The notes under the pieces are model-generated. The model was not told where the DNA came from and searched no databases. It saw nothing but the letters and a program-made list of their open reading frames with translations. A DNA stretch of 24,317 nucleotides from Escherichia phage CBA6. Position numbers and translations under genes: made by a program. How positions within the stretch are numbered: position 1 is the first letter of the stretch; every line of letters begins with the position of its first letter. The stretch lies in the sequence record KM389296.1; one strand, 5' to 3'. Below, piece by piece: positions 2,874 through 17,665 of the stretch.

Positions 2874-3332
2874 TCATGGCACCAAAGTAATGACGATCAT
2901 ATTGAGTACTGTGTCAACTGCGATACCAGAATCTTCTTCATGTATAGTTGATGCACGTAAATGAATGTCAGAAATATAATTGTCAATATGCATAGACGTC
3001 AGGTAAGGGCGGTGCTGGTACACAGGGCGATTGATCTGTACATATTCACGCAAGATGCTGAATGAAAAGTCTTCACATTGAGTGGTGTCAATTCGCAAAA
3101 AGCGTTGGGCGTGACAGGTCTTTAATTCAGTCACTTTTCCCAAATAATGAAGGTCTCCGAATGAACCGATGCGGAACATTACATCCACTTCAGATTTGAA
3201 AATTTCACGTTCAATAAGAGTCGCTGGTGCCCAACAAACTTCTTCCTTGTCTTCAGAAAACAACGTGTCTATCACTTCTGGTAATTGGATATAACCAAAG
3301 TTGTGGCGAGGGTTGGTGAGAATTTTATCCAT
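2874..3332 (-). CDS. Hypothetical protein (152 aa)
   Basis: ATG at 3332 preceded by the conserved leader AGCAGGAATTATATC; the track's 3353 start is TTG. No recognisable motif. Confidence 0.55.
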   Translation of the reverse strand: MDKILTNPRHNFGYIQLPEVIDTLFSEDKEEVCWAPATLIEREIFKSEVDVMFRIGSFGDLHYLGKVTELKTCHAQRFLRIDTTQCEDFSFSILREYVQINRPVYQHRPYLTSMHIDNYISDIHLRASTIHEEDSGIAVDTVLNMIVITLVP

Positions 3333-3409
3333 GATATAATTCCTGCTGTTCAATTTGTGGCGTTTGCCAATGAATTACTGGGAAGTATAGGCGGGAAGGT
3401 TTCAAAAGT

Positions 3410-8152: not shown

Positions 8153-8947
8153 TTAACAGAAACTCTTGTATGCCGCCGCTAGTTTGGTGTCATACTGGTT
8201 CTTGGCATATGCTGGACCATTGTACCGACGGGCGAACTCAGCCCAATTTTTGTTCTTCAATGCTTTCCACATATTGGCGTCAGCTTTGATGAATTTCACA
8301 AATGCCAGAAGATGTGCGCGTTCACCAGTCAGAAAATCTGTGAACATTTCTTTGGCGTTCGGATAACCACATATCTGGCAATTGAACCCCATGATCTGGA
8401 ATAAGCCGTAGGACGCACTCTCGTACGCGCAATCCTCATCAAGGGCGATTGCACCCTGAAGGCGTTCCAACTCCGCGTCTCCGCCGATATAGCCACCAGA
8501 ATTGGGGTTAACCAATGTTGGGTAAAGTTGGTACAGAGCATTGGCTCTTGCTTGTCCGAATTTAGCCGCCACTTTCTTATACATGATGTGGCGCTCGAAC
8601 AGAGTTTTGATCTTACCTGTTTTGGTGAAACCCGTTCCCCGAGATTCGACCTGGTTAACAGCTTTCATGCTGGCCAGTTCGACACCAAGTTCACGCGCTG
8701 CGTCAACTAAGTCGGCTTCGGTAAGATGTTCCTGATGAGCGTCTCCGGCATTACGGATAGCATAGAAGGTTTTTGGACCTGCAATACCATCAATCACCAG
8801 TCCGGCACCTGCCTGAACGGATTTGACAGCATTCTCGGTCGCTTTGCCAAATATGCCATCAGCTACAAGAGAGAACCCGATTTTATTGAGGCTTTGCTGA
8901 AGTGATTTGACTTCAGAACCTCGGTTGCCAAGTTTTAGAATGGCCAT
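8153..8947 (-). CDS. Endolysin: N-terminal peptidoglycan-binding domain plus C-terminal muramidase-like catalytic domain
   Basis: N-terminus LKLGNRGSEVKSLQQSLNKIGF...DGIFGKATENAVKSVQ is PG_binding_1-like; C-terminus (FERHIMYKK, GLFQIMGFN, NWAEFARRYNGPAYAKNQYDTKL) recalled as N-acetylmuramidase-type. No signal peptide or TM segment. Confidence 0.75.
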   Translation of the reverse strand: MAILKLGNRGSEVKSLQQSLNKIGFSLVADGIFGKATENAVKSVQAGAGLVIDGIAGPKTFYAIRNAGDAHQEHLTEADLVDAARELGVELASMKAVNQVESRGTGFTKTGKIKTLFERHIMYKKVAAKFGQARANALYQLYPTLVNPNSGGYIGGDAELERLQGAIALDEDCAYESASYGLFQIMGFNCQICGYPNAKEMFTDFLTGERAHLLAFVKFIKADANMWKALKNKNWAEFARRYNGPAYAKNQYDTKLAAAYKSFC

Positions 8948-8951
8948 AAGA

Positions 8952-8982
8952 AAATACCTCCGCAGTGATTGCAGAGGTATTT
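8952..8982 (-). promoter_or_regulatory. 5' leader hairpin sequestering the endolysin Shine-Dalgarno
   Basis: 9-bp outer stem plus 3-bp inner stem; the GGAGGT Shine-Dalgarno (8956-8961) lies in the stem, 8 nt before ATG 8947; a TTTAAATA box (8978-8985) overlaps the 5' arm. Confidence 0.45.
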
Positions 8983-9017
8983 AAAGTGAAAGTGAACTGA
9001 CTTGAGGAACTGTTATG

Positions 9018-9323
9018 TTAGATAGTTGACAAAAGAGTGTTCAGACTAACGATCTGCATTTGAATGCCTCTCTTCAGACTTTCATATGCCTCCACTGGTG
9101 AAGGCACGGAGTTAGATTGCTTATTCCCACCATAAGTCTGAGCCGACCAGCGGCCAGTGTCTTGCCAGTAGAAGAGGACGGCTGTTGACTCTCCGCTATC
9201 AATCATGATCGCCCCTACGCCATCAGGGTGATCTTTGAACAACTGATGCTTCCACTGCTTGCCTGTCTTTTCCTTCAGGAGGTGGCATGTTGCTTCGCCG
9301 ATTTGTTCGAGGGTCAGTTTCAT
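9018..9323 (-). CDS. Hypothetical protein (101 aa)
   Basis: ATG start overlapping the upstream stop (ATGA); no TM segment, so not a holin. Confidence 0.5.
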   Translation of the reverse strand: MKLTLEQIGEATCHLLKEKTGKQWKHQLFKDHPDGVGAIMIDSGESTAVLFYWQDTGRWSAQTYGGNKQSNSVPSPVEAYESLKRGIQMQIVSLNTLLSTI

Positions 9324-9508
9324 CGCGCAACCACCACAGGCATAATTTCGTTGAAGGCTTCACGGACTTCAGTGTCGTACCCGTATTTTTCCAGGATCGT
9401 TAGCATTGCTTGCTCGATTTCTTCTTGAAACTGAGGGAAATGAACTTCAGGGATTCTGGTTATAACCCAGATAGCACCTTCTGAAGCGTGGATAATCGGA
9501 CGTCCCAT
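9320..9508 (-). CDS. Hypothetical protein (62 aa)
   Basis: ATG with AGGAG Shine-Dalgarno; coupled to the downstream gene; no TM segment. Confidence 0.45.
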   Translation of the reverse strand: MGRPIIHASEGAIWVITRIPEVHFPQFQEEIEQAMLTILEKYGYDTEVREAFNEIMPVVVAR

Positions 9509-9537
9509 GATAATCTCCTACCAAAAATCTGAATAAG

Positions 9538-9557
9538 GAGGGGAGTTGCCTCCCCTT
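9538..9557 (-). terminator. Rho-independent terminator after the 162-aa gene
   Basis: Stem GGGGAG / CTCCCC with TTGC loop; on the minus strand followed by TCCTTATTCAGATTTTTGG. Confidence 0.5.
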
Positions 9558-9562
9558 GGGTC

Positions 9563-10051
9563 TTATGCCAGTTTGCTCACCAGAGTTTCAACGGCGTCTG
9601 CGCTCAGTTTACCCATTTTGACATACTGGGATTTTGCTTCACCGCCAGCGGCTTTCACGATATCGCTGTTGTCGTAACCTTTTTTCGGGAATACCATCAC
9701 AGAGAAGGTTCCGTTGTTCAGCGGGTTCAGCTGGATGCGCCCTTTTCCGACAGTGATGGTGCCGTAAGTTTCGGTCGTAGCTTCAACAACGTGGATGTCG
9801 TGTCCAAGGTCTTTCAGCATGCCAACTTTGTCAGCGGTTTTTGCTACGACTGCTTTATCAACCACAACCTGCTCAACCAGGGTGAAGCCGTTGGTCGCTT
9901 TGACTTTGCCGTTCAGCAGGTTCATGAAGGAAGTTTTGCCACCAGTGAAGCCAGCTGCCTGAGCGATGCGGAACATTTCAACTTTTGCAACTTCAGTGTT
10001 CAGTTCAAAAGAGATGGTGCCGTTGGTGATCAGAGTTTTGGTAGTAGCCAT
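9563..10051 (-). CDS. Hypothetical protein (162 aa), likely abundant
   Basis: ATG 10051 preceded by GAGGAATTACATC (conserved leader); the track's 10087 start is GTG. Thr/Gly/Val/Lys-rich; no recognisable motif. Confidence 0.6.
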   Translation of the reverse strand: MATTKTLITNGTISFELNTEVAKVEMFRIAQAAGFTGGKTSFMNLLNGKVKATNGFTLVEQVVVDKAVVAKTADKVGMLKDLGHDIHVVEATTETYGTITVGKGRIQLNPLNNGTFSVMVFPKKGYDNSDIVKAAGGEAKSQYVKMGKLSADAVETLVSKLA

Positions 10052-10201
10052 GATGTAATTCCTCATAATGTAGTTGGTTCGTTTCACTTTTCATTCGGCG
10101 GGGTGTTGTGTACCGCCCTATGTGAACTATAATAGTGCATCATTATTGAAGAGTAAAGTCTTTTTCAATAAAATTTTAAAATATTTTTGAAGTATTTTAA
10201 G

Positions 10202-10222
10202 AGGCCTCATAGAACGAGGCCT
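10202..10222 (-). terminator. Terminator-like hairpin after the primase gene
   Basis: Stem AGGCCTC / GAGGCCT with 7-nt loop, followed on the minus strand by an A/T-rich tract. Confidence 0.45.
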
Positions 10223-10262
10223 GGAGGGAAATATTTTGAGTTAAAAAGTTTTAGGTCAGTTC

Positions 10263-11327
10263 TTATATCTTCCTCAAATCTGAAAACCTCAGGGACGCTG
10301 CCAACCCCTGATACACGTTCTTGGCTATGATCTGAAGCAAATCACGAATAGGGATGTTCCCCTTATCCGGATGGACCATATCGTTGATATCCTTCCATGG
10401 AATTTCTGGTGGGAACAGAACGACTTTGACTCCGCTGTCTATCATTTTCTGTATACCATCACAAACTTGTTTGTTTCGATATTGGTTGTCAGGGATATAG
10501 ATATCCCCCTTGGCGCTCAGAAGGTCAGCATCCGCAGTTGCTAAACAATTCGGGAGGAACAGGCTATCAATTGGACCTTCAACGACCAATTTGGTCTTAT
10601 TCCATATGATGCGCTCTTCCCCATAGATTTTAGTATCCTCGTTTTTGGGCTTGACAGTGGCGTACCGCAACACATTATCAGGAAGGTTATCACCGAATGC
10701 GCGCCCCTGAACGATCTTCATGCGACCGTCTTGAGTCCAGAATGGGATAACCAACCGTTCATCTTCAGGGATCTTCTTCTGTTTTTCAACGTCTGTTTCA
10801 AAATTCAAAAGATCCTCGCGGAAGTTCTTGCTGTAATACAAAAGAGATAACGCGCTCTCCGGCATTCCCCTGCCTTCCACGTAACGACGAGCAATATGGT
10901 CACGATCAAGTAAATCTAATCGTATCATGTTGCCGAGGTGCTCTTCATCTCTTTTGGCAACTTGGGAGCCGATACGCGCTGTTTGGGTGAGGCGCTGTAA
11001 TGGCTTGAGTTTTTGTAGGGGGCGTGAATTGGTGTCCCCCATGATTCTGAATTTTTCAAGATTATATTCGTTGTACAATCTCTCATCAAACTTCTTCAAC
11101 CAAAACTCAAACGACCAACCACTCATCTCGTTGCAGTTGTGACACTTAAAACGAAACACATCTTCATCGCGATCATAAAAGAAGTGACCACGACGTTTGT
11201 TGGCACTCTTCTTAGAGTCCCCGCATAGAGGGCAACGGAACTTGGCGACAGCGCCTACGCGTTCCCAGCTGAACTTGTCAAGTCGAGGGGCGAGGAAATT
11301 GATGTATTGTTCGTCTAAGAATTTCAT
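10263..11327 (-). CDS. DNA primase (T4 gp61-like)
   Basis: N-terminal zinc ribbon (FRCPLCGDSKKS ... FKCHNCNE) and TOPRIM-like acidic core (VVEGPIDSLF, ATADADLL); size matches T4 gp61. Confidence 0.85.
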   Translation of the reverse strand: MKFLDEQYINFLAPRLDKFSWERVGAVAKFRCPLCGDSKKSANKRRGHFFYDRDEDVFRFKCHNCNEMSGWSFEFWLKKFDERLYNEYNLEKFRIMGDTNSRPLQKLKPLQRLTQTARIGSQVAKRDEEHLGNMIRLDLLDRDHIARRYVEGRGMPESALSLLYYSKNFREDLLNFETDVEKQKKIPEDERLVIPFWTQDGRMKIVQGRAFGDNLPDNVLRYATVKPKNEDTKIYGEERIIWNKTKLVVEGPIDSLFLPNCLATADADLLSAKGDIYIPDNQYRNKQVCDGIQKMIDSGVKVVLFPPEIPWKDINDMVHPDKGNIPIRDLLQIIAKNVYQGLAASLRFSDLRKI

Positions 11328-12006: not shown

Positions 12007-12360
12007 TTAAGACAATTGCTTCAGTTTGTAGATGGTCTGATAGCACAGGGTTTTGATTTCATCGAGCGTATTTTGAAGATGGCTGTCACATTGACCGTAA
12101 ATTCCGTTTACGTCGATAACAACGCTATTGACATACGATATAGGATCTGGGTTGTACAGTTTAATATTCTCAAACCCTGGGACATATACACCACCCGCGC
12201 CGATATATGCCTCTGTAAAGGTATCCAGCAAGTCCTCCAGTTCCCCGTAGAACTCCCCGAGTGCCTTGTGCTTGGCATAGGACGTTGTAACGAAGTGGAG
12301 GGCATGAGAGTGGGCTATAGCAAGCAGTCCACGGTTGATGAAAATACTCGCGTTAACCAT
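12007..12360 (-). CDS. Hypothetical protein (117 aa)
   Basis: ATG with GAGGAAACAATC Shine-Dalgarno; preceded by a terminator hairpin. Confidence 0.55.
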   Translation of the reverse strand: MVNASIFINRGLLAIAHSHALHFVTTSYAKHKALGEFYGELEDLLDTFTEAYIGAGGVYVPGFENIKLYNPDPISYVNSVVIDVNGIYGQCDSHLQNTLDEIKTLCYQTIYKLKQLS

Positions 12361-12382
12361 GATTGTTTCCTCAGAAAAAGAA

Positions 12383-12404
12383 ATCCCCCTGTATTTAGGG
12401 GGAT
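12383..12404 (-). terminator. Rho-independent terminator after the 190-aa gene
   Basis: Stem ATCCCCCT / AGGGGGAT with 6-nt loop; on the minus strand followed by TTCTTTTTCTG. Confidence 0.6.
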
Positions 12405-12420
12405 CTTCATTTCACCACGA

Positions 12421-12993
12421 TTAAATCGGTTTCACTCCGATGTACTTGGCGATATCCGCGGCCAGGGTTTTCCCCTTACTGATATCTTGTTGCTTGCCAC
12501 CAACAGTAACGATCACATATGGGTCATCTTCACCGCCGAAGTCGATTGCCACGGCCTTGCCAATACCAGGGATGCCGGAATATTCATATTCAGTGCGACC
12601 GCTTTTGCGAGACTTGCCGACACCCAGCGCTTTACCGATCATCTTATCCATGTTCGCTAGTTCTTGAGCATAGGATTCTGTGACCTGGCCTTTGCTGGCG
12701 TCTTTACCAAAGAAGAATTCGTATCCGTCATGAACGGCAACAACATCTTTGCCCACAGAAACCGCATGAACCTGGTCCGGCGTCAGTTTCACTTTAGTAG
12801 TATTACCATTAGTCAATTCCAGATTATAGACATCGGCCTGATTATCAGGAGTGATCTGGGTCACGGTAGCGCCGGAGCACCATTGTGTTCCATCGGCTTG
12901 TTTAGTGATGGTTACACTTTTGCCTTGTATACCGCCATGAGTTTGCGGCTGCTGGGCTTGTTCTTTAAAATATTCGATAAACGGTTTCATCAT
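12421..12993 (-). CDS. Hypothetical protein (190 aa)
   Basis: ATG with AGGAG Shine-Dalgarno; flanked by hairpins at both ends; Gly/Lys-rich; no recognisable motif. Confidence 0.6.
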   Translation of the reverse strand: MMKPFIEYFKEQAQQPQTHGGIQGKSVTITKQADGTQWCSGATVTQITPDNQADVYNLELTNGNTTKVKLTPDQVHAVSVGKDVVAVHDGYEFFFGKDASKGQVTESYAQELANMDKMIGKALGVGKSRKSGRTEYEYSGIPGIGKAVAIDFGGEDDPYVIVTVGGKQQDISKGKTLAADIAKYIGVKPI

Positions 12994-13019
12994 GGATCTC
13001 CTAAGGATTTTGATGTATT

Positions 13020-13037
13020 TAGCCCCCGAAGGGGCTA
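13020..13037. terminator. Stable hairpin (CGAA/UUCG tetraloop) between the 906-aa and 190-aa genes
   Basis: Stem TAGCCCC / GGGGCTA; the T-tract (TGGTTTATTT) is on the plus side and is weaker on the minus side, so terminator versus processing site is unresolved. Confidence 0.45.
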
Positions 13038-13041
13038 TGGT

Positions 13042-15762
13042 TTATTTCAGACGGATCTGGAGATTACCACCCAGTGATTGTTCATATTCACTGTAAGCAC
13101 TGTCACCATTGCTCATAGCCCATTCGTCCGACTGACGGGCGCTATCCAAAGTCATGAGATTCGGTTCGGTCGGGTTGTATCCCTTCGCCTTCGCATCGTT
13201 GTATACCGTTTGCAGGTACTGGTTGGCACGGTTAATCTGATCTTTGAACTCACGATATGCACCTTCGGTTGTGTTGCGACGGAAGGTGATACTCCAATCG
13301 ACGTTAAGAACTGCGCCGCTATTGGTCACGTATACCTGCCAATCAAGATCTCGTCCGTTGGGAGCACTGTTGCGGATGGAATCGGAATATGTGGCCAGAT
13401 CGCTGCTGTTCTTGCCCCCAGCAGCTTGGTCTTTGGCGCGAGCCAGGGCATCAATGACTGCAGTGCGGTTTCTAGACTGCGCCAGATCTTTGTCTTGGAA
13501 CATAATTGCACCAAACTTACTGACGGTGATATCATTCAGAAACAGCTTGTTCGGGTTATAGTTTGATGAACTGAGATGGCTCAATTGAGCCGCAGCGTCT
13601 TTCAGGCGTTGTGAAGTCTCATTCAACGCATCTTGCACAGACTTGACAGATAACTGAATGTCATATCCGCTGCTGTTGACTACATTTCGGCCATTTTCGG
13701 TCAGCATGGTCGTGATGTTGGCCTTATTACGATCGAAGTCGTAAGTCACGTTCGTAACGAACCGTGCGGCTTGCAGCTGGCTACCCGCAGGGAACTGGAA
13801 GTCCCAAGCCACAGAGAACCCATGAACGGTTTCACCAAATATCTTCGCATTGCTTGGGGCTTTCAGGTTCGCAGTGATGACAGCGTTATCACTGGAATTT
13901 GTGTTGATTTCGCCGAAGATAGTCTTCCCATCAGAAGACTGGACCATCAGAGTATCTTTGCTGCGCCAGTCATAACGAACAATAAACGTCGTTCGAGGGA
14001 ACTCTTTTATCAGATCGAGTTTGACTGCCTTACCCAGAGTAAAACGATTTAACAATGCATCGGCGATCTTCAAAGTAAACGAAATACAATCGACATAAGA
14101 ATAACCCTGGGAACGGGAAACCTTTTGAATCGGGTATGGGGCACCGTTGATCGGAACAACACGACATTCCACTTCACCTTTGAACTGAGAATCAGCAGCG
14201 CGGGATATCGCACTGACGATTTCAAAAGCAGCGTTTTTCACGTCGCCTTCCAGCAGCAGCTGTTCATTGCCAGATAAATCAGAAACCACTTCTACAGAGA
14301 GTTTGCTGTTGACAATCCCCCAAAAATAGACTTGAATATCCAACCCGCCAGAAGTTCGATATTTGCCAGCACCAACCCGAGACAATTTTTCACCAGCATA
14401 CATGCCGACTTGCTGAGGAGCATATGTATCAACGATGCCCAAGATGCGGGCGATATAACCCTGGTTGCGCAGATCATCCATAGAACCGGTTTTTGGAAGA
14501 GTTTTCATGTCGACGGGAGCAGTAGCCCCTATTCCAAACTCGACGTATGCCACGATCTTCCCACCAGACTTCAGTTCCCAGCCCATTCCCTGACGGTCTG
14601 AAGCCGCCATGATTTTGCGATCCACTTCTCCACGCCCGACATATTCTTTGTTGAATACCGTCACTTGTGCGATAGACTGAGTGCGGGCAATCTTCGCCAT
14701 CGCGCCATCTTTGACCATGATAGCCAGGTCATTGGAACTCAGGGTCACGTCGTTCGCGCCGACCACCTTCACAACAGAACTGAAGATGCCGTTGGACTTT
14801 GCCATAACGGAGATGTTCCAGTCCGGATTTATGGAAGACGGTGCATCAGCATCAACGTCAACAGTCAAAACCACTTGCCCACCTTTCTTGAACACATACT
14901 GATCATAGATGCCTTTATTTTGTTTTGTCATGACAGCGCCGACCAGATCCTGGTTAGTGAATCCCCGCTTCATGCTCCATGCCACTTCGGTGCCGTCCGG
15001 ATATTTGTCGAAATCATACCCAAAGAACTTCGCCACTTCACGTGAGCCACTGACCAGCTGCACGTAATTTCCGCGAATTGGGTCACGGCCATTTTTCAGT
15101 TCAAGACTAGTGTCAGAACTGTTATACCATTGGCGGTTTACTTCAATCTCGGTGCTGGAGCCAGTCCCAACATCAGGGGTGTTGTTCTGAACCGGAACGT
15201 CTCCGACTTTGTCTGGATCGTCCCAAGTCACGCCTTTCATTTTCGGACCATCAAATACCTGAGCAGGATCCTTGCCTTTACGCACAACCCATACGAAGGC
15301 ACGGTCAGGGATTGGGGTATAAGTCAGATCCATGACGTTGAGTTTCTGCTTCAGACCAGATTGACGAATAATTTTTGGGAGTAACGTCGTTCCGCGTTCT
15401 AGAGCTTTCTTGGAGAAGTTAATCGCAAACCCATCAATGGTTTTACCCAGCGGTGTCGCCATGAATTGTTTAGTCGCTTCGATCATGGATGCGATGACAC
15501 GCATTGGGTTTTTGAAACGACCGATTGCGTCTGGATAGGTTGAACCACGTTTCTGGCCTATGAAGACCTGACGAACGTTCTTGCCCAGCCCCTGCGGGGT
15601 ATAAAATTGGATGCGGAATTCTTTTTCATCTTCGTCTACGAACGTGAAGAAAATGTCACCAGCATTTTTCTTGCCGAAAGTCAATTCGTATGGAGCGGAG
15701 TTAAACGCTTCGTCCAATTGTTTGGACTCGTCAAGGAAATTTAAGAAAGATTGGATGGCCAT
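13042..15762 (-). CDS. Large hypothetical protein (906 aa), function unknown
   Basis: Uninterrupted 2.7-kb ORF with ATG and AGGAG Shine-Dalgarno (AGGAGAATTACAATG); bracketed by hairpins; no catalytic motif recognised. Confidence 0.8.
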   Translation of the reverse strand: MAIQSFLNFLDESKQLDEAFNSAPYELTFGKKNAGDIFFTFVDEDEKEFRIQFYTPQGLGKNVRQVFIGQKRGSTYPDAIGRFKNPMRVIASMIEATKQFMATPLGKTIDGFAINFSKKALERGTTLLPKIIRQSGLKQKLNVMDLTYTPIPDRAFVWVVRKGKDPAQVFDGPKMKGVTWDDPDKVGDVPVQNNTPDVGTGSSTEIEVNRQWYNSSDTSLELKNGRDPIRGNYVQLVSGSREVAKFFGYDFDKYPDGTEVAWSMKRGFTNQDLVGAVMTKQNKGIYDQYVFKKGGQVVLTVDVDADAPSSINPDWNISVMAKSNGIFSSVVKVVGANDVTLSSNDLAIMVKDGAMAKIARTQSIAQVTVFNKEYVGRGEVDRKIMAASDRQGMGWELKSGGKIVAYVEFGIGATAPVDMKTLPKTGSMDDLRNQGYIARILGIVDTYAPQQVGMYAGEKLSRVGAGKYRTSGGLDIQVYFWGIVNSKLSVEVVSDLSGNEQLLLEGDVKNAAFEIVSAISRAADSQFKGEVECRVVPINGAPYPIQKVSRSQGYSYVDCISFTLKIADALLNRFTLGKAVKLDLIKEFPRTTFIVRYDWRSKDTLMVQSSDGKTIFGEINTNSSDNAVITANLKAPSNAKIFGETVHGFSVAWDFQFPAGSQLQAARFVTNVTYDFDRNKANITTMLTENGRNVVNSSGYDIQLSVKSVQDALNETSQRLKDAAAQLSHLSSSNYNPNKLFLNDITVSKFGAIMFQDKDLAQSRNRTAVIDALARAKDQAAGGKNSSDLATYSDSIRNSAPNGRDLDWQVYVTNSGAVLNVDWSITFRRNTTEGAYREFKDQINRANQYLQTVYNDAKAKGYNPTEPNLMTLDSARQSDEWAMSNGDSAYSEYEQSLGGNLQIRLK

Positions 15763-15843: not shown

Positions 15844-16212
15844 TTATAACCCTTCAATCCTTACGTTGACATATTTTGTTTCGTAATTCGGGTCACGGCC
15901 TTCAGAGTAGTCATATGTCTGAATGGTCTGTACGCACAGAGTTATTTTGAATTTGGCAATCTTCATAACCGCGATGCCAAAGTCAACCAGGTCATCCTTT
16001 TTATCTAGCACCAGGCCTTTAGTGCCGAGTTCACGTAATAAGTCTTTAAACAAGCGCTTGGACGGGTTGCTGATATCGAGCGGACCAGTTTTACACAGGG
16101 GAAACCCCTTGATGATTTTGTTGCTACGGTCACGCGCGATTTTATTGTTCCCACGACGAATATTCTTGTACCCAGCAACGTTTAGAATGTTGTTCAATTC
16201 AGTTTTGGTCAT
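15844..16212 (-). CDS. Hypothetical protein (122 aa)
   Basis: ATG 16212 preceded by the conserved leader AGCAGGAACTACATC; the track's 16233 start is TTG. Basic, Lys-rich. Confidence 0.6.
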   Translation of the reverse strand: MTKTELNNILNVAGYKNIRRGNNKIARDRSNKIIKGFPLCKTGPLDISNPSKRLFKDLLRELGTKGLVLDKKDDLVDFGIAVMKIAKFKITLCVQTIQTYDYSEGRDPNYETKYVNVRIEGL

Positions 16213-16285
16213 GATGTAGTTCCTGCTTTTCAAGTTGGTGTCGTACTGCTTATGTTTAGAATTATACGGTAGTTATTGAAGAAGT

Positions 16286-16309
16286 AAAGGGGCGTTTGCC
16301 CCTTTTATT
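16286..16309. terminator. Bidirectional rho-independent terminator
   Basis: AAAGGGGC / GCCCCTTT stem with GTTT loop; TTTTATT on the plus side and TTTACTTCTTC on the minus side. Confidence 0.65.
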
Positions 16310-16317
16310 GAATTATT

Positions 16318-17639: not shown

Positions 17640-17665
17640 AAGGGCACTTGATATTTAGTGCCCTT
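17640..17665 (-). terminator. Rho-independent terminator ending the recombination/late-sigma operon
   Basis: Stem AAGGGCACT / AGTGCCCTT with 8-nt loop; on the minus strand followed by TATCTTTTAACC. Confidence 0.6.

Follow-up and report, generated by a model that had tools for sequence, protein, structure and literature searches.

A 162-codon gene of Ackermannviridae phages has the strongest codon-adaptation signature in the Salmonella phage Vi01 genome and a conserved high-expression cassette

In phages of the family Ackermannviridae, more than half of the genes are uncharacterized (PMC10892097). We analyzed a minus-strand open reading frame (ORF) of 162 codons in a stretch of 24,317 nucleotides (nt) from Escherichia phage CBA6 (sequence record KM389296.1; hereafter, the window), whose source belongs to Kuttervirus (Ackermannviridae). 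The encoded protein is 100% identical to Vi01_089c (CBW37957.1) of Salmonella phage Vi01, where the gene has the strongest codon-adaptation signature in the genome. It has a conserved monocistronic high-expression cassette, and sequence comparisons place it among the core genes of Ackermannviridae and some related T4-like phages, not among accessory genes. These features suggest a very abundant, non-virion protein produced from a host-type promoter, presumably early in infection. Tentatively, and with somewhat less than even confidence, we regard it as an abundant, early-expressed nucleic-acid-binding factor with an architectural, host-takeover, or global regulatory role.

Results

Codon usage

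The complete Vi01 genome was assembled, and the 208 annotated genes were scored for the frequency of optimal codons of the Escherichia coli type (Fop) and for the effective number of codons (ENC). Vi01_089c ranked first in Fop (0.846; genome mean 0.511, standard deviation [sd] 0.078), followed by the major capsid gene (0.808), and its ENC of 30.5 was the lowest of all. Only the major capsid and scaffold genes had a comparable codon bias. The homolog also topped its neighbors in Fop at four of five distant loci, by 3 to 7.5 sd; in Vibrio phage Kuja, for instance, it scored 0.744 versus 0.436 ± 0.041 for the neighboring genes. The initial annotation, made from the window alone, had proposed an abundant product. 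The rank of the gene in both measures, the distant loci, and the conserved cassette described below all strongly support this proposal, and we infer abundance from these sequence signals.

Several other non-structural genes of Vi01 also showed high host-type codon bias, with Fop of 0.60–0.73 (127c, 129c, 062c, 095c, 146c, 187c, and 107c). All are function-unassigned PHROGs save 107c, an HU-family DNA-binding protein, and several have promoters of the TTCAATAA type described below.

The gene, its start codon, and its distribution

The ORF was confirmed as a genuine gene that stands on its own. Starting at an in-frame GTG (10087) would lengthen the product by 12 residues to 174 amino acids (aa). 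The position equivalent to the ATG at 10051 is the start in all homologs, and a CDS of identical length (489 bp) is annotated in Vi01, LIMEstone1, KpS110, and Sajous1. The annotated start of the Vibrio phage K476 homolog VPHK476_0186 (locus L023, 1462-2013) lies 39 nt upstream of the aligned start and falls at or before the TATAAT of an apparent promoter; this annotation is probably too long, and no evident Shine-Dalgarno sequence precedes the aligned start.

The protein has a mass of 17.2 kDa and a pI of 9.25 (8.4–9.9 in most homologs) and lacks both Cys and Trp. Its composition (V 11.7, T 11.1, K 10.5, G 9.9, and A 9.9%) agrees with the initial description as Thr/Gly/Val/Lys-rich. The gene was also correctly placed between primase and endolysin genes: primase lies upstream (10263..11327), and two small ORFs and then endolysin (8153..8947) lie downstream.

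Over the 1.4 kb around the gene, identity to the Salmonella phages Se_EM1, Vi01, and Marshall, among others, was 98-99.6%, and among Kuttervirus genomes both gene DNA and protein were 99-100% identical. By tblastn, the gene was found in 356 phage records, with phages of Salmonella, Escherichia, Shigella, Klebsiella, Dickeya, Serratia, Erwinia, Enterobacter, Aeromonas, and Vibrio as well as Pseudomonas phage Cygsa01; among the matches listed, all 40 rows carried the label 'hypothetical protein'. The protein matched PHROG 3764 (function unassigned) over its full length (E 3.7e-92; residues 1-162 on profile positions 1-162 of 162), the named orthologs being LIMEstone1 ORF073, Sajous1 gp1, KpS110_006, Bue1 gp073, and Kuja_0640. 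A deep hidden Markov model (HMM) search against 1.84 billion representative proteins yielded just 39 matches (cluster representatives). The genuine ones were proteins of 93-266 aa; matches of about 1800 aa were rejected as composition artefacts in Ig, lectin, or beta-helix proteins.

Every one of these homologs whose context was checked came from a phage that has T4-like core genes (gp32, gp33, gp44/62, RegA, UvsY, UvsW, gp5/gp25, or primase). The gene neighbors themselves differ among phages, being primase, gp32, RegA, or baseplate genes, and Vi01_089c is set among replication, nucleotide-metabolism, and lysis genes. One homolog (locus L010, 8001-8756) lies within 8 kb of thymidine-hypermodification genes (HMUDK_hel and ADDT). 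All Ackermannviridae genera sampled, whose hosts differ widely, carried the gene. We assign it to the core because it is found across these genera, the hosts of which range from Salmonella and Dickeya to Vibrio, and also in T4-like relatives; the suggestion in the initial annotation of an accessory protein is thus not upheld. The gene, a piece of phage dark matter, is already annotated throughout as hypothetical, and no paper in the literature searched, accession numbers included, mentions the protein family.

A conserved expression cassette

The features of the gene and its flanks are listed in Table 1. The 211-nt gap upstream is among the eight longest in Vi01, where the median gap is 31 nt, and it holds a promoter that ranks with the best sigma70-like matches of the Vi01 intergenic DNA. 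A+T accounts for 90% of the 30 nt that precede the -35 hexamer. Counted from the inferred position of the transcription start, the 5' untranslated region (UTR) is about 72 nt long and carries near its 5' end a stem-loop that presumably stabilizes the mRNA. Its stem is kept, with a variable loop, in LIMEstone1, KpS110, and Bue1, and analogous hairpins occupy the same place in most distant loci. The leader ATGAGGAATTACATCATG occurs three times in the window at ≤3 mismatches, versus 0.03 expected. An A/T-rich upstream region, a Shine-Dalgarno sequence, and a conserved leader had all been noted at the outset, and each was confirmed.

Table 1. Coordinates of the gene, its expression signals, and its predicted domains in the window. 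pLDDT, predicted local distance difference test.
Feature	Position	Strand	Remarks
GC-rich hairpin AGGCCUCG-UUCUA-UGAGGCCU	10202..10222	minus	40 nt past primase stop; terminator-like upstream boundary of cassette
A/T-rich UP-element-like region	10158..10200	minus	holds box TTATTGAA
Box TTATTGAA	10171..10164	minus	inverted copy of spacer box
-35-like hexamer TTTACT	10152..10157	minus	promoter scan TTTACT-17-TATTAT
TTCAATAA box in promoter spacer	10143..10150	minus	directly after -35 hexamer
-10 hexamer TATTAT	10129..10134	minus	
5'-UTR stem-loop GGCGG...CCGCC	10097..10117	minus	A/C-rich loop; near 5' end of predicted 5' UTR
Shine-Dalgarno core GAGG	10061..10064	minus	9 nt before ATG, inside AGGAAnTAnATCATG initiation motif
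ORF, 162 codons	9563..10051	minus	ATG 10051..10049, TAA 9565..9563
N-terminal domain, codons 1-64	9860..10051	minus	predicted beta-beta-alpha-alpha-beta
Flexible linker, codons 65-74	9830..9859	minus	pLDDT <50
C-terminal alpha/beta domain, codons 75-162	9566..9829	minus	three helices, five strands
Stop codon TAA	9563..9565	minus	
GC hairpin GGGGAG-GCAA-CUCCCC	9539..9556	minus	GNRA tetraloop; 6 nt past stop, before next ORF (ATG 9508)
TTCAATAA copies in window	10143-10150, 10164-10171, 16273-16280, 16305-16312	minus, plus, minus, minus	

An initiation motif, AG(C/-)AGGAAnTAnATCATG, is common to three genes of the window (3330-3347, 10049-10066, and 16210-16227; all minus). The motif at 16210 comes after a TTTACTTCTTCAATAA promoter, like that of the gene studied here.

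Terminators on both sides of the gene had been proposed as well. The hairpins exist where they were placed, but neither has a canonical U-tract, and a scan of 8900-10400 called 0 terminators because the T-tracts are weak; terminator-like hairpins is the better name for them. Canonical terminators are present at the homologous loci of other phages. For the 78-nt segment holding the upstream hairpin, the folding energy is -14.2 kcal/mol (z -4.1), a value reached by 0 of 200 shuffles; the stem is kept in KpS110 and in LIMEstone1, whose annotation lists it as a terminator. The downstream hairpin is unexceptional taken alone (z -1.4 to -1.9) and represents a putative terminator-like or 3'-stabilizing element. 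Among 12 homologous loci, 10 have a GC hairpin, often with a GNRA or UUCG loop, directly after the stop codon.

Read on the gene strand, the cassette was found in most of these 12 loci, each element having exceptions at a few of them. It begins with a hairpin or canonical terminator that ends the upstream gene, followed by A/T-rich DNA and near-consensus -35 and -10 elements. Next come a 5' UTR of about 62-75 nt, whose first element is a stem-loop with an A/C-rich loop, and a Shine-Dalgarno sequence; the ORF and a GC hairpin complete the cassette. The cassette is retained although the genomic position of the gene shifts. Automated promoter picking failed at the loci of Vibrio phages K476 and VP-1, and the sequence there was read by eye. 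In the metagenomic contig NODE_148 (locus L012, 3206-3344), the promoter and 5' hairpin of the homolog are nearly duplicated at the gene downstream of it, as TTTCTTTnnnTTCCTCC-N9-CTATAATGTATTCA and then a stem-loop. Other phage lineages thus drive the homolog with an extended promoter consensus of their own.

Virion proteomes and the late-type motif

LIMEstone1 ORF073 and Sajous1 gp1 are absent from the virion mass spectrometry (MS) tables of their phages (PMC3296691, PMC10892097); the Sajous1 table includes traces of non-structural proteins, among them SSB, endolysin, and RegB (PMC10892097). The motif CTAAATA, found 30-40 nt upstream of the neighboring virion-protein genes (12392-12398 and 13016-13022, minus), does not occur in the gap upstream of the gene. 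Both results accord with the initial view that this is not a typical structural gene. In Vi01, 10 of the 11 genome-wide copies of CTAAATAC are in upstream intergenic regions, and the intergenic motif CTAAATAC(C) is probably the late-promoter core. The T4 late-promoter counterpart is TATAAATA.

A helper of morphogenesis or structure (scaffold, decoration protein, or assembly chaperone) might be needed at capsid-like amounts and yet be lost from, or hard to detect in, mature virions. The codon bias, comparable only to that of the major capsid and scaffold genes, would fit such a helper, as would a weak fold likeness to type III secretion chaperones. However, the gene has a sigma70-type promoter with no late CTAAATA, unlike the adjacent virion genes, and sits among replication, nucleotide-metabolism, and lysis genes (near gp32, RegA, or primase in other phages). 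Together with the absence of the protein from two virion proteomes, this makes an assembly helper most improbable.

The window holds a third CTAAATA(C) motif at 17652-17658 (minus), so that the three copies lie 30-85 nt upstream of gene starts 12360, 12993, and 17573. Three consecutive genes at 12007-15762 (minus) are homologous to Vi01_092c-094c and to Sajous1 gp214, gp215, and gp217, which were detected by MS in CsCl-purified virions (PMC10892097). The ORF at 12007-12360 encodes a 117-aa ferritin/Dps-like protein, and the large gene encodes 906 aa in the window, about 107 aa more than Vi01_094c.

Two domains and a variable linker

AlphaFold2 modeled two domains with confidence (pLDDT 83.7) and, between them, a linker disordered at residues 65-71. 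Modeled alone, the C-terminal domain reached a pLDDT of 94.7 and a predicted template modeling score (pTM) of 0.85, with the element order alpha-beta4-alpha-beta-alpha. In a 23-sequence alignment at the level of Ackermannviridae, its invariant residues are T93-E94-T95-Y96, R105, Q107, P122, K124-G125, and Q142-Y143; conserved Tyr, Arg, Gln, Thr, and Lys would lie exposed on one face of the beta-sheet. The N-terminal domain carries the family signature G-(K/R)-T-S-F-x-N-L-L-x-G-K across a loop and the second helix, which to the eye resembles the recognition helices of LacI/XRE-type proteins.

The linker ranges from about 10 to more than 100 residues among homologs. Pseudomonas-phage-like variants join the same two domains by A/P/E/K-rich, disordered-looking linkers of 40 to more than 100 residues; long-linker variants include L010 8001-8756, Cygsa01_00043 (L025 2141-2773), P0079-P0083, and P0093. 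The N-terminal domain is a mobile module that occurs alone (93-116 aa) or joined to unrelated C-terminal parts (proteins P0094-P0097). Residues 114-171 of P0096 gave a sub-threshold match to DUF3489 (PF11994; 24.4 bits versus a cut-off of 29.5).

Searches of Pfam, NCBIfam, PADLOC, PDB sequences, and Rfam gave nothing useful, and PHROG 3764 has no assigned function, so the initial label of an orphan with no motif holds. A match to GlcV was noise (19 bits versus a cut-off of 450). A33-x4-G38-K39-T40 fits the Walker A pattern [AG]-x4-G-K-[ST], but a P-loop NTPase reading was rejected, since A33, G38, and K39 vary in the family and the motif follows a helix; weak FeoB matches (E ≥ 0.29) stem from this Walker-A look-alike. 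A LysM-like beta-alpha-alpha-beta reading of the N-terminal domain found no LysM model match, and homology to T4 Ndd was dismissed at an hhalign probability of 0.07%. The C-terminal domain is likened to UBC/UEV/RWD folds (Atg3, Tsg101 UEV, GCN2 RWD, and Csm1/Mcm21) at 3-14% identity with twilight-zone scores and an empty Foldseek result. An E2/UBC enzyme was rejected because the protein, having no Cys, lacks a catalytic Cys.

Fold neighbors of this protein-interaction type, an invariant polar and aromatic cluster (TETY, R, Q, KG, and QY) that could form a ligand pocket, and very high expression from a host-type promoter would all suit a stoichiometric inhibitor or sponge. Such a protein would bind a protein or ligand and titrate an abundant host protein (e.g., RNA polymerase/sigma70, H-NS/HU, RecA, or a protease) or a defense signaling molecule. 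However, the fold scores are all in the twilight zone, there is no PADLOC or other family match, and the gene is in every Ackermannviridae genus sampled, whereas anti-defense genes are usually patchy accessory genes. The combination of two separately conserved domains with a linker of very variable length is unusual among known sponges. We therefore consider an inhibitor or sponge unlikely.

The TTCAATAA box and promoter classes of Vi01

Of the 44 copies of TTCAATAA in Vi01, 25 are in intergenic DNA, which makes up 7.8% of the genome. Shuffled intergenic segments held 0.78 ± 0.92 copies, corresponding to an approximately 30-fold enrichment. Two geometries were apparent. In the first, which has no -35 element, the arrangement TTCAATAA-N11-14-TAT(A/T)AT lies upstream of Vi01 040, 047, 053, 113, 177, 193, 201, and 206. 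The box is placed here as in T4 MotA promoters, where 12 ± 1 bp separate the MotA box from the -10 element (PMC2988021). In the second, TTTACT(T)C-TTCAATAA-N6-8-TATnnT (also written TTTACT(T)CTTCAATAA-N6-8-TATnnT), another box in either orientation often lies upstream of the -35 hexamer. It was found at Vi01 genes 089 (the gene studied here), 095, 146, 187, and 129, which are highly codon-biased and function-unassigned. High codon bias and an upstream TTCAATAA box also characterize the HU-type gene Vi01_107c, which has no TTTACT -35 hexamer.

In the promoter of our gene, the -35 hexamer lies between the two boxes, which make up an 8-bp inverted repeat (10171-10164 and 10150-10143). The repeat is kept in LIMEstone1 and KpS110, and its arms are swapped in Erwinia phage Bue1. 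The box was not seen upstream of the Vibrio or metagenomic phage homologs, though the protein is conserved there. A 'putative middle promoter' annotated in LIMEstone1 was set aside as a mere pattern match to the T4 consensus. Homologs of MotA, AsiA, Ndd, and Arn were all lacking in Vi01 (by tblastn or phmmer for MotA and AsiA). Because Vi01 is without MotA and AsiA homologs, Ackermannviridae phages may have an activator system of their own.

T4 MotA (PF09114 MotA_activ plus PF09158 MotCF) is an activator of middle promoters whose box is TGCTTtA, versus TTCAATAA here. The 162-aa protein could be its functional analog, though not its homolog, with the C-terminal domain reading the TTCAATAA box and the N-terminal domain contacting RNA polymerase or sigma70. 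The role appears vacant in Vi01, which has gp55, gp33, and gp45 in addition to a promoter class in which the box replaces the -35 element with MotA-box spacing. The intergenic enrichment of the box and the pair of inverted boxes flanking the -35 hexamer of the gene's own promoter point the same way, and like MotA the protein is basic, has an early-type promoter, and consists of two domains and a linker.

Several observations argue against such an analog. Aligned by hhalign with a 20-sequence MotA alignment, the family alignment gave a probability of 1.4%, and there was no Pfam match to MotA at E ≤ 1, so homology to MotA was rejected. UBC-like folds outscored the MotA C-terminal domain, a DNA-binding 'double wing', as a match to the C-terminal domain. 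The N-terminal domain is predicted as beta-beta-alpha-alpha-beta, not the all-helical five-helix bundle with which MotA binds sigma70 H5, and the AsiA partner is missing from Vi01. The Fop of 0.846, versus 0.569 for T4 motA, suggests a copy number beyond the need of a specific activator. Finally, the box is missing upstream of the Vibrio and metagenomic homologs, and nothing ties the protein to it. We thus judge a MotA analog decidedly unlikely. More doubtful still is a fuller version, in which the protein would be a structurally new, very abundant MotA analog serving as the middle-gene transcription factor of Ackermannviridae. It would read TTCAATAA at about -30 in -35-less promoters and in its own promoter, redirect sigma70 RNA polymerase without an AsiA-type partner, and possibly also act as a global DNA-architectural factor.

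Discussion

Our preferred reading, held tentatively as said above, is that of an abundant nucleic-acid-binding factor. Nucleic-acid binding is favored because of the basic charge, the helix-turn-helix (HTH)-like motif, the residues predicted on one face of the C-terminal domain, the modular N-terminal domain, and the presence of an HU-type protein among the codon-biased TTCAATAA genes. That protein, Vi01_107c (HU fold, PF00216), shares a TTCAATAA-type upstream region and high codon bias with our gene and is the only annotated member of this promoter and codon-bias class in Vi01.

Judging from the sequence signals, unmodified host sigma70 RNA polymerase probably transcribes the gene from early in infection onward, using a strong UP/-35/-10 promoter. 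The 5' stem-loop and the 3' GC hairpin probably buffer the mRNA, whose codon usage is the best adapted to the host of any gene in the genome. Given this promoter, these hairpins, and this codon usage, the mildly basic 17-kDa cytoplasmic product would probably accumulate to very high copy number and not be built into virions. It may then act stoichiometrically on an abundant target, most likely nucleic acid. The two conserved globular domains, tethered by the flexible linker, would bind DNA or RNA together, with the N-terminal domain contributing the HTH-like G(K/R)TSFxNLLxGK motif and the sheet of the C-terminal domain contributing Tyr, Arg, Gln, Thr, and Lys.

The proposed role is comparable to those of SPO1 TF1, T4 MotB, Ndd, and MotA, although the sequences are unrelated. 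SPO1 TF1, Vi01_107c, T4 MotB, and Ndd are likewise small, basic, non-virion, and highly expressed. SPO1 TF1 is abundant and prefers hydroxymethyluracil DNA (hmU-DNA). The 162-aa protein, unlike TF1 and Vi01_107c, has no HU fold, and it has no similarity to Ndd; its DNA binding is predicted.

A number of points weigh against a nucleic-acid-binding role. The net charge is only +4, and the long-linker homologs are acidic overall. No HTH or other DNA-binding Pfam model matched even at E ≤ 1, and a Foldseek search against the PDB yielded nothing (best E 0.44), so that the HTH-like motif has neither a family-model match nor a solved-fold neighbor. The exposed face of the C-terminal sheet was derived from the periodicity of the sequence rather than from coordinates. 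In addition, gp32 and two HU-like proteins are already present in Vi01. Literature searches for a transcriptome or infected-cell proteome of Ackermannviridae, Kuttervirus, or CBA120 found none, and the timing, like the abundance, was read from the signals described above.

Kuttervirus and other Ackermannviridae phages are widely isolated for biocontrol of Salmonella, E. coli O157, Klebsiella, and Dickeya. The gene described here combines the strongest high-expression signature in the genome with family-wide conservation, and its product has no homolog of known function and no confident fold relative. The 162-aa protein is a well-defined, experimentally tractable target. The TTCAATAA promoter class suggests a middle-transcription system in these phages. 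If the protein is indeed made so abundantly from the first minutes of infection, it probably has a central part in taking over the host, protecting the genome, or regulating genes.

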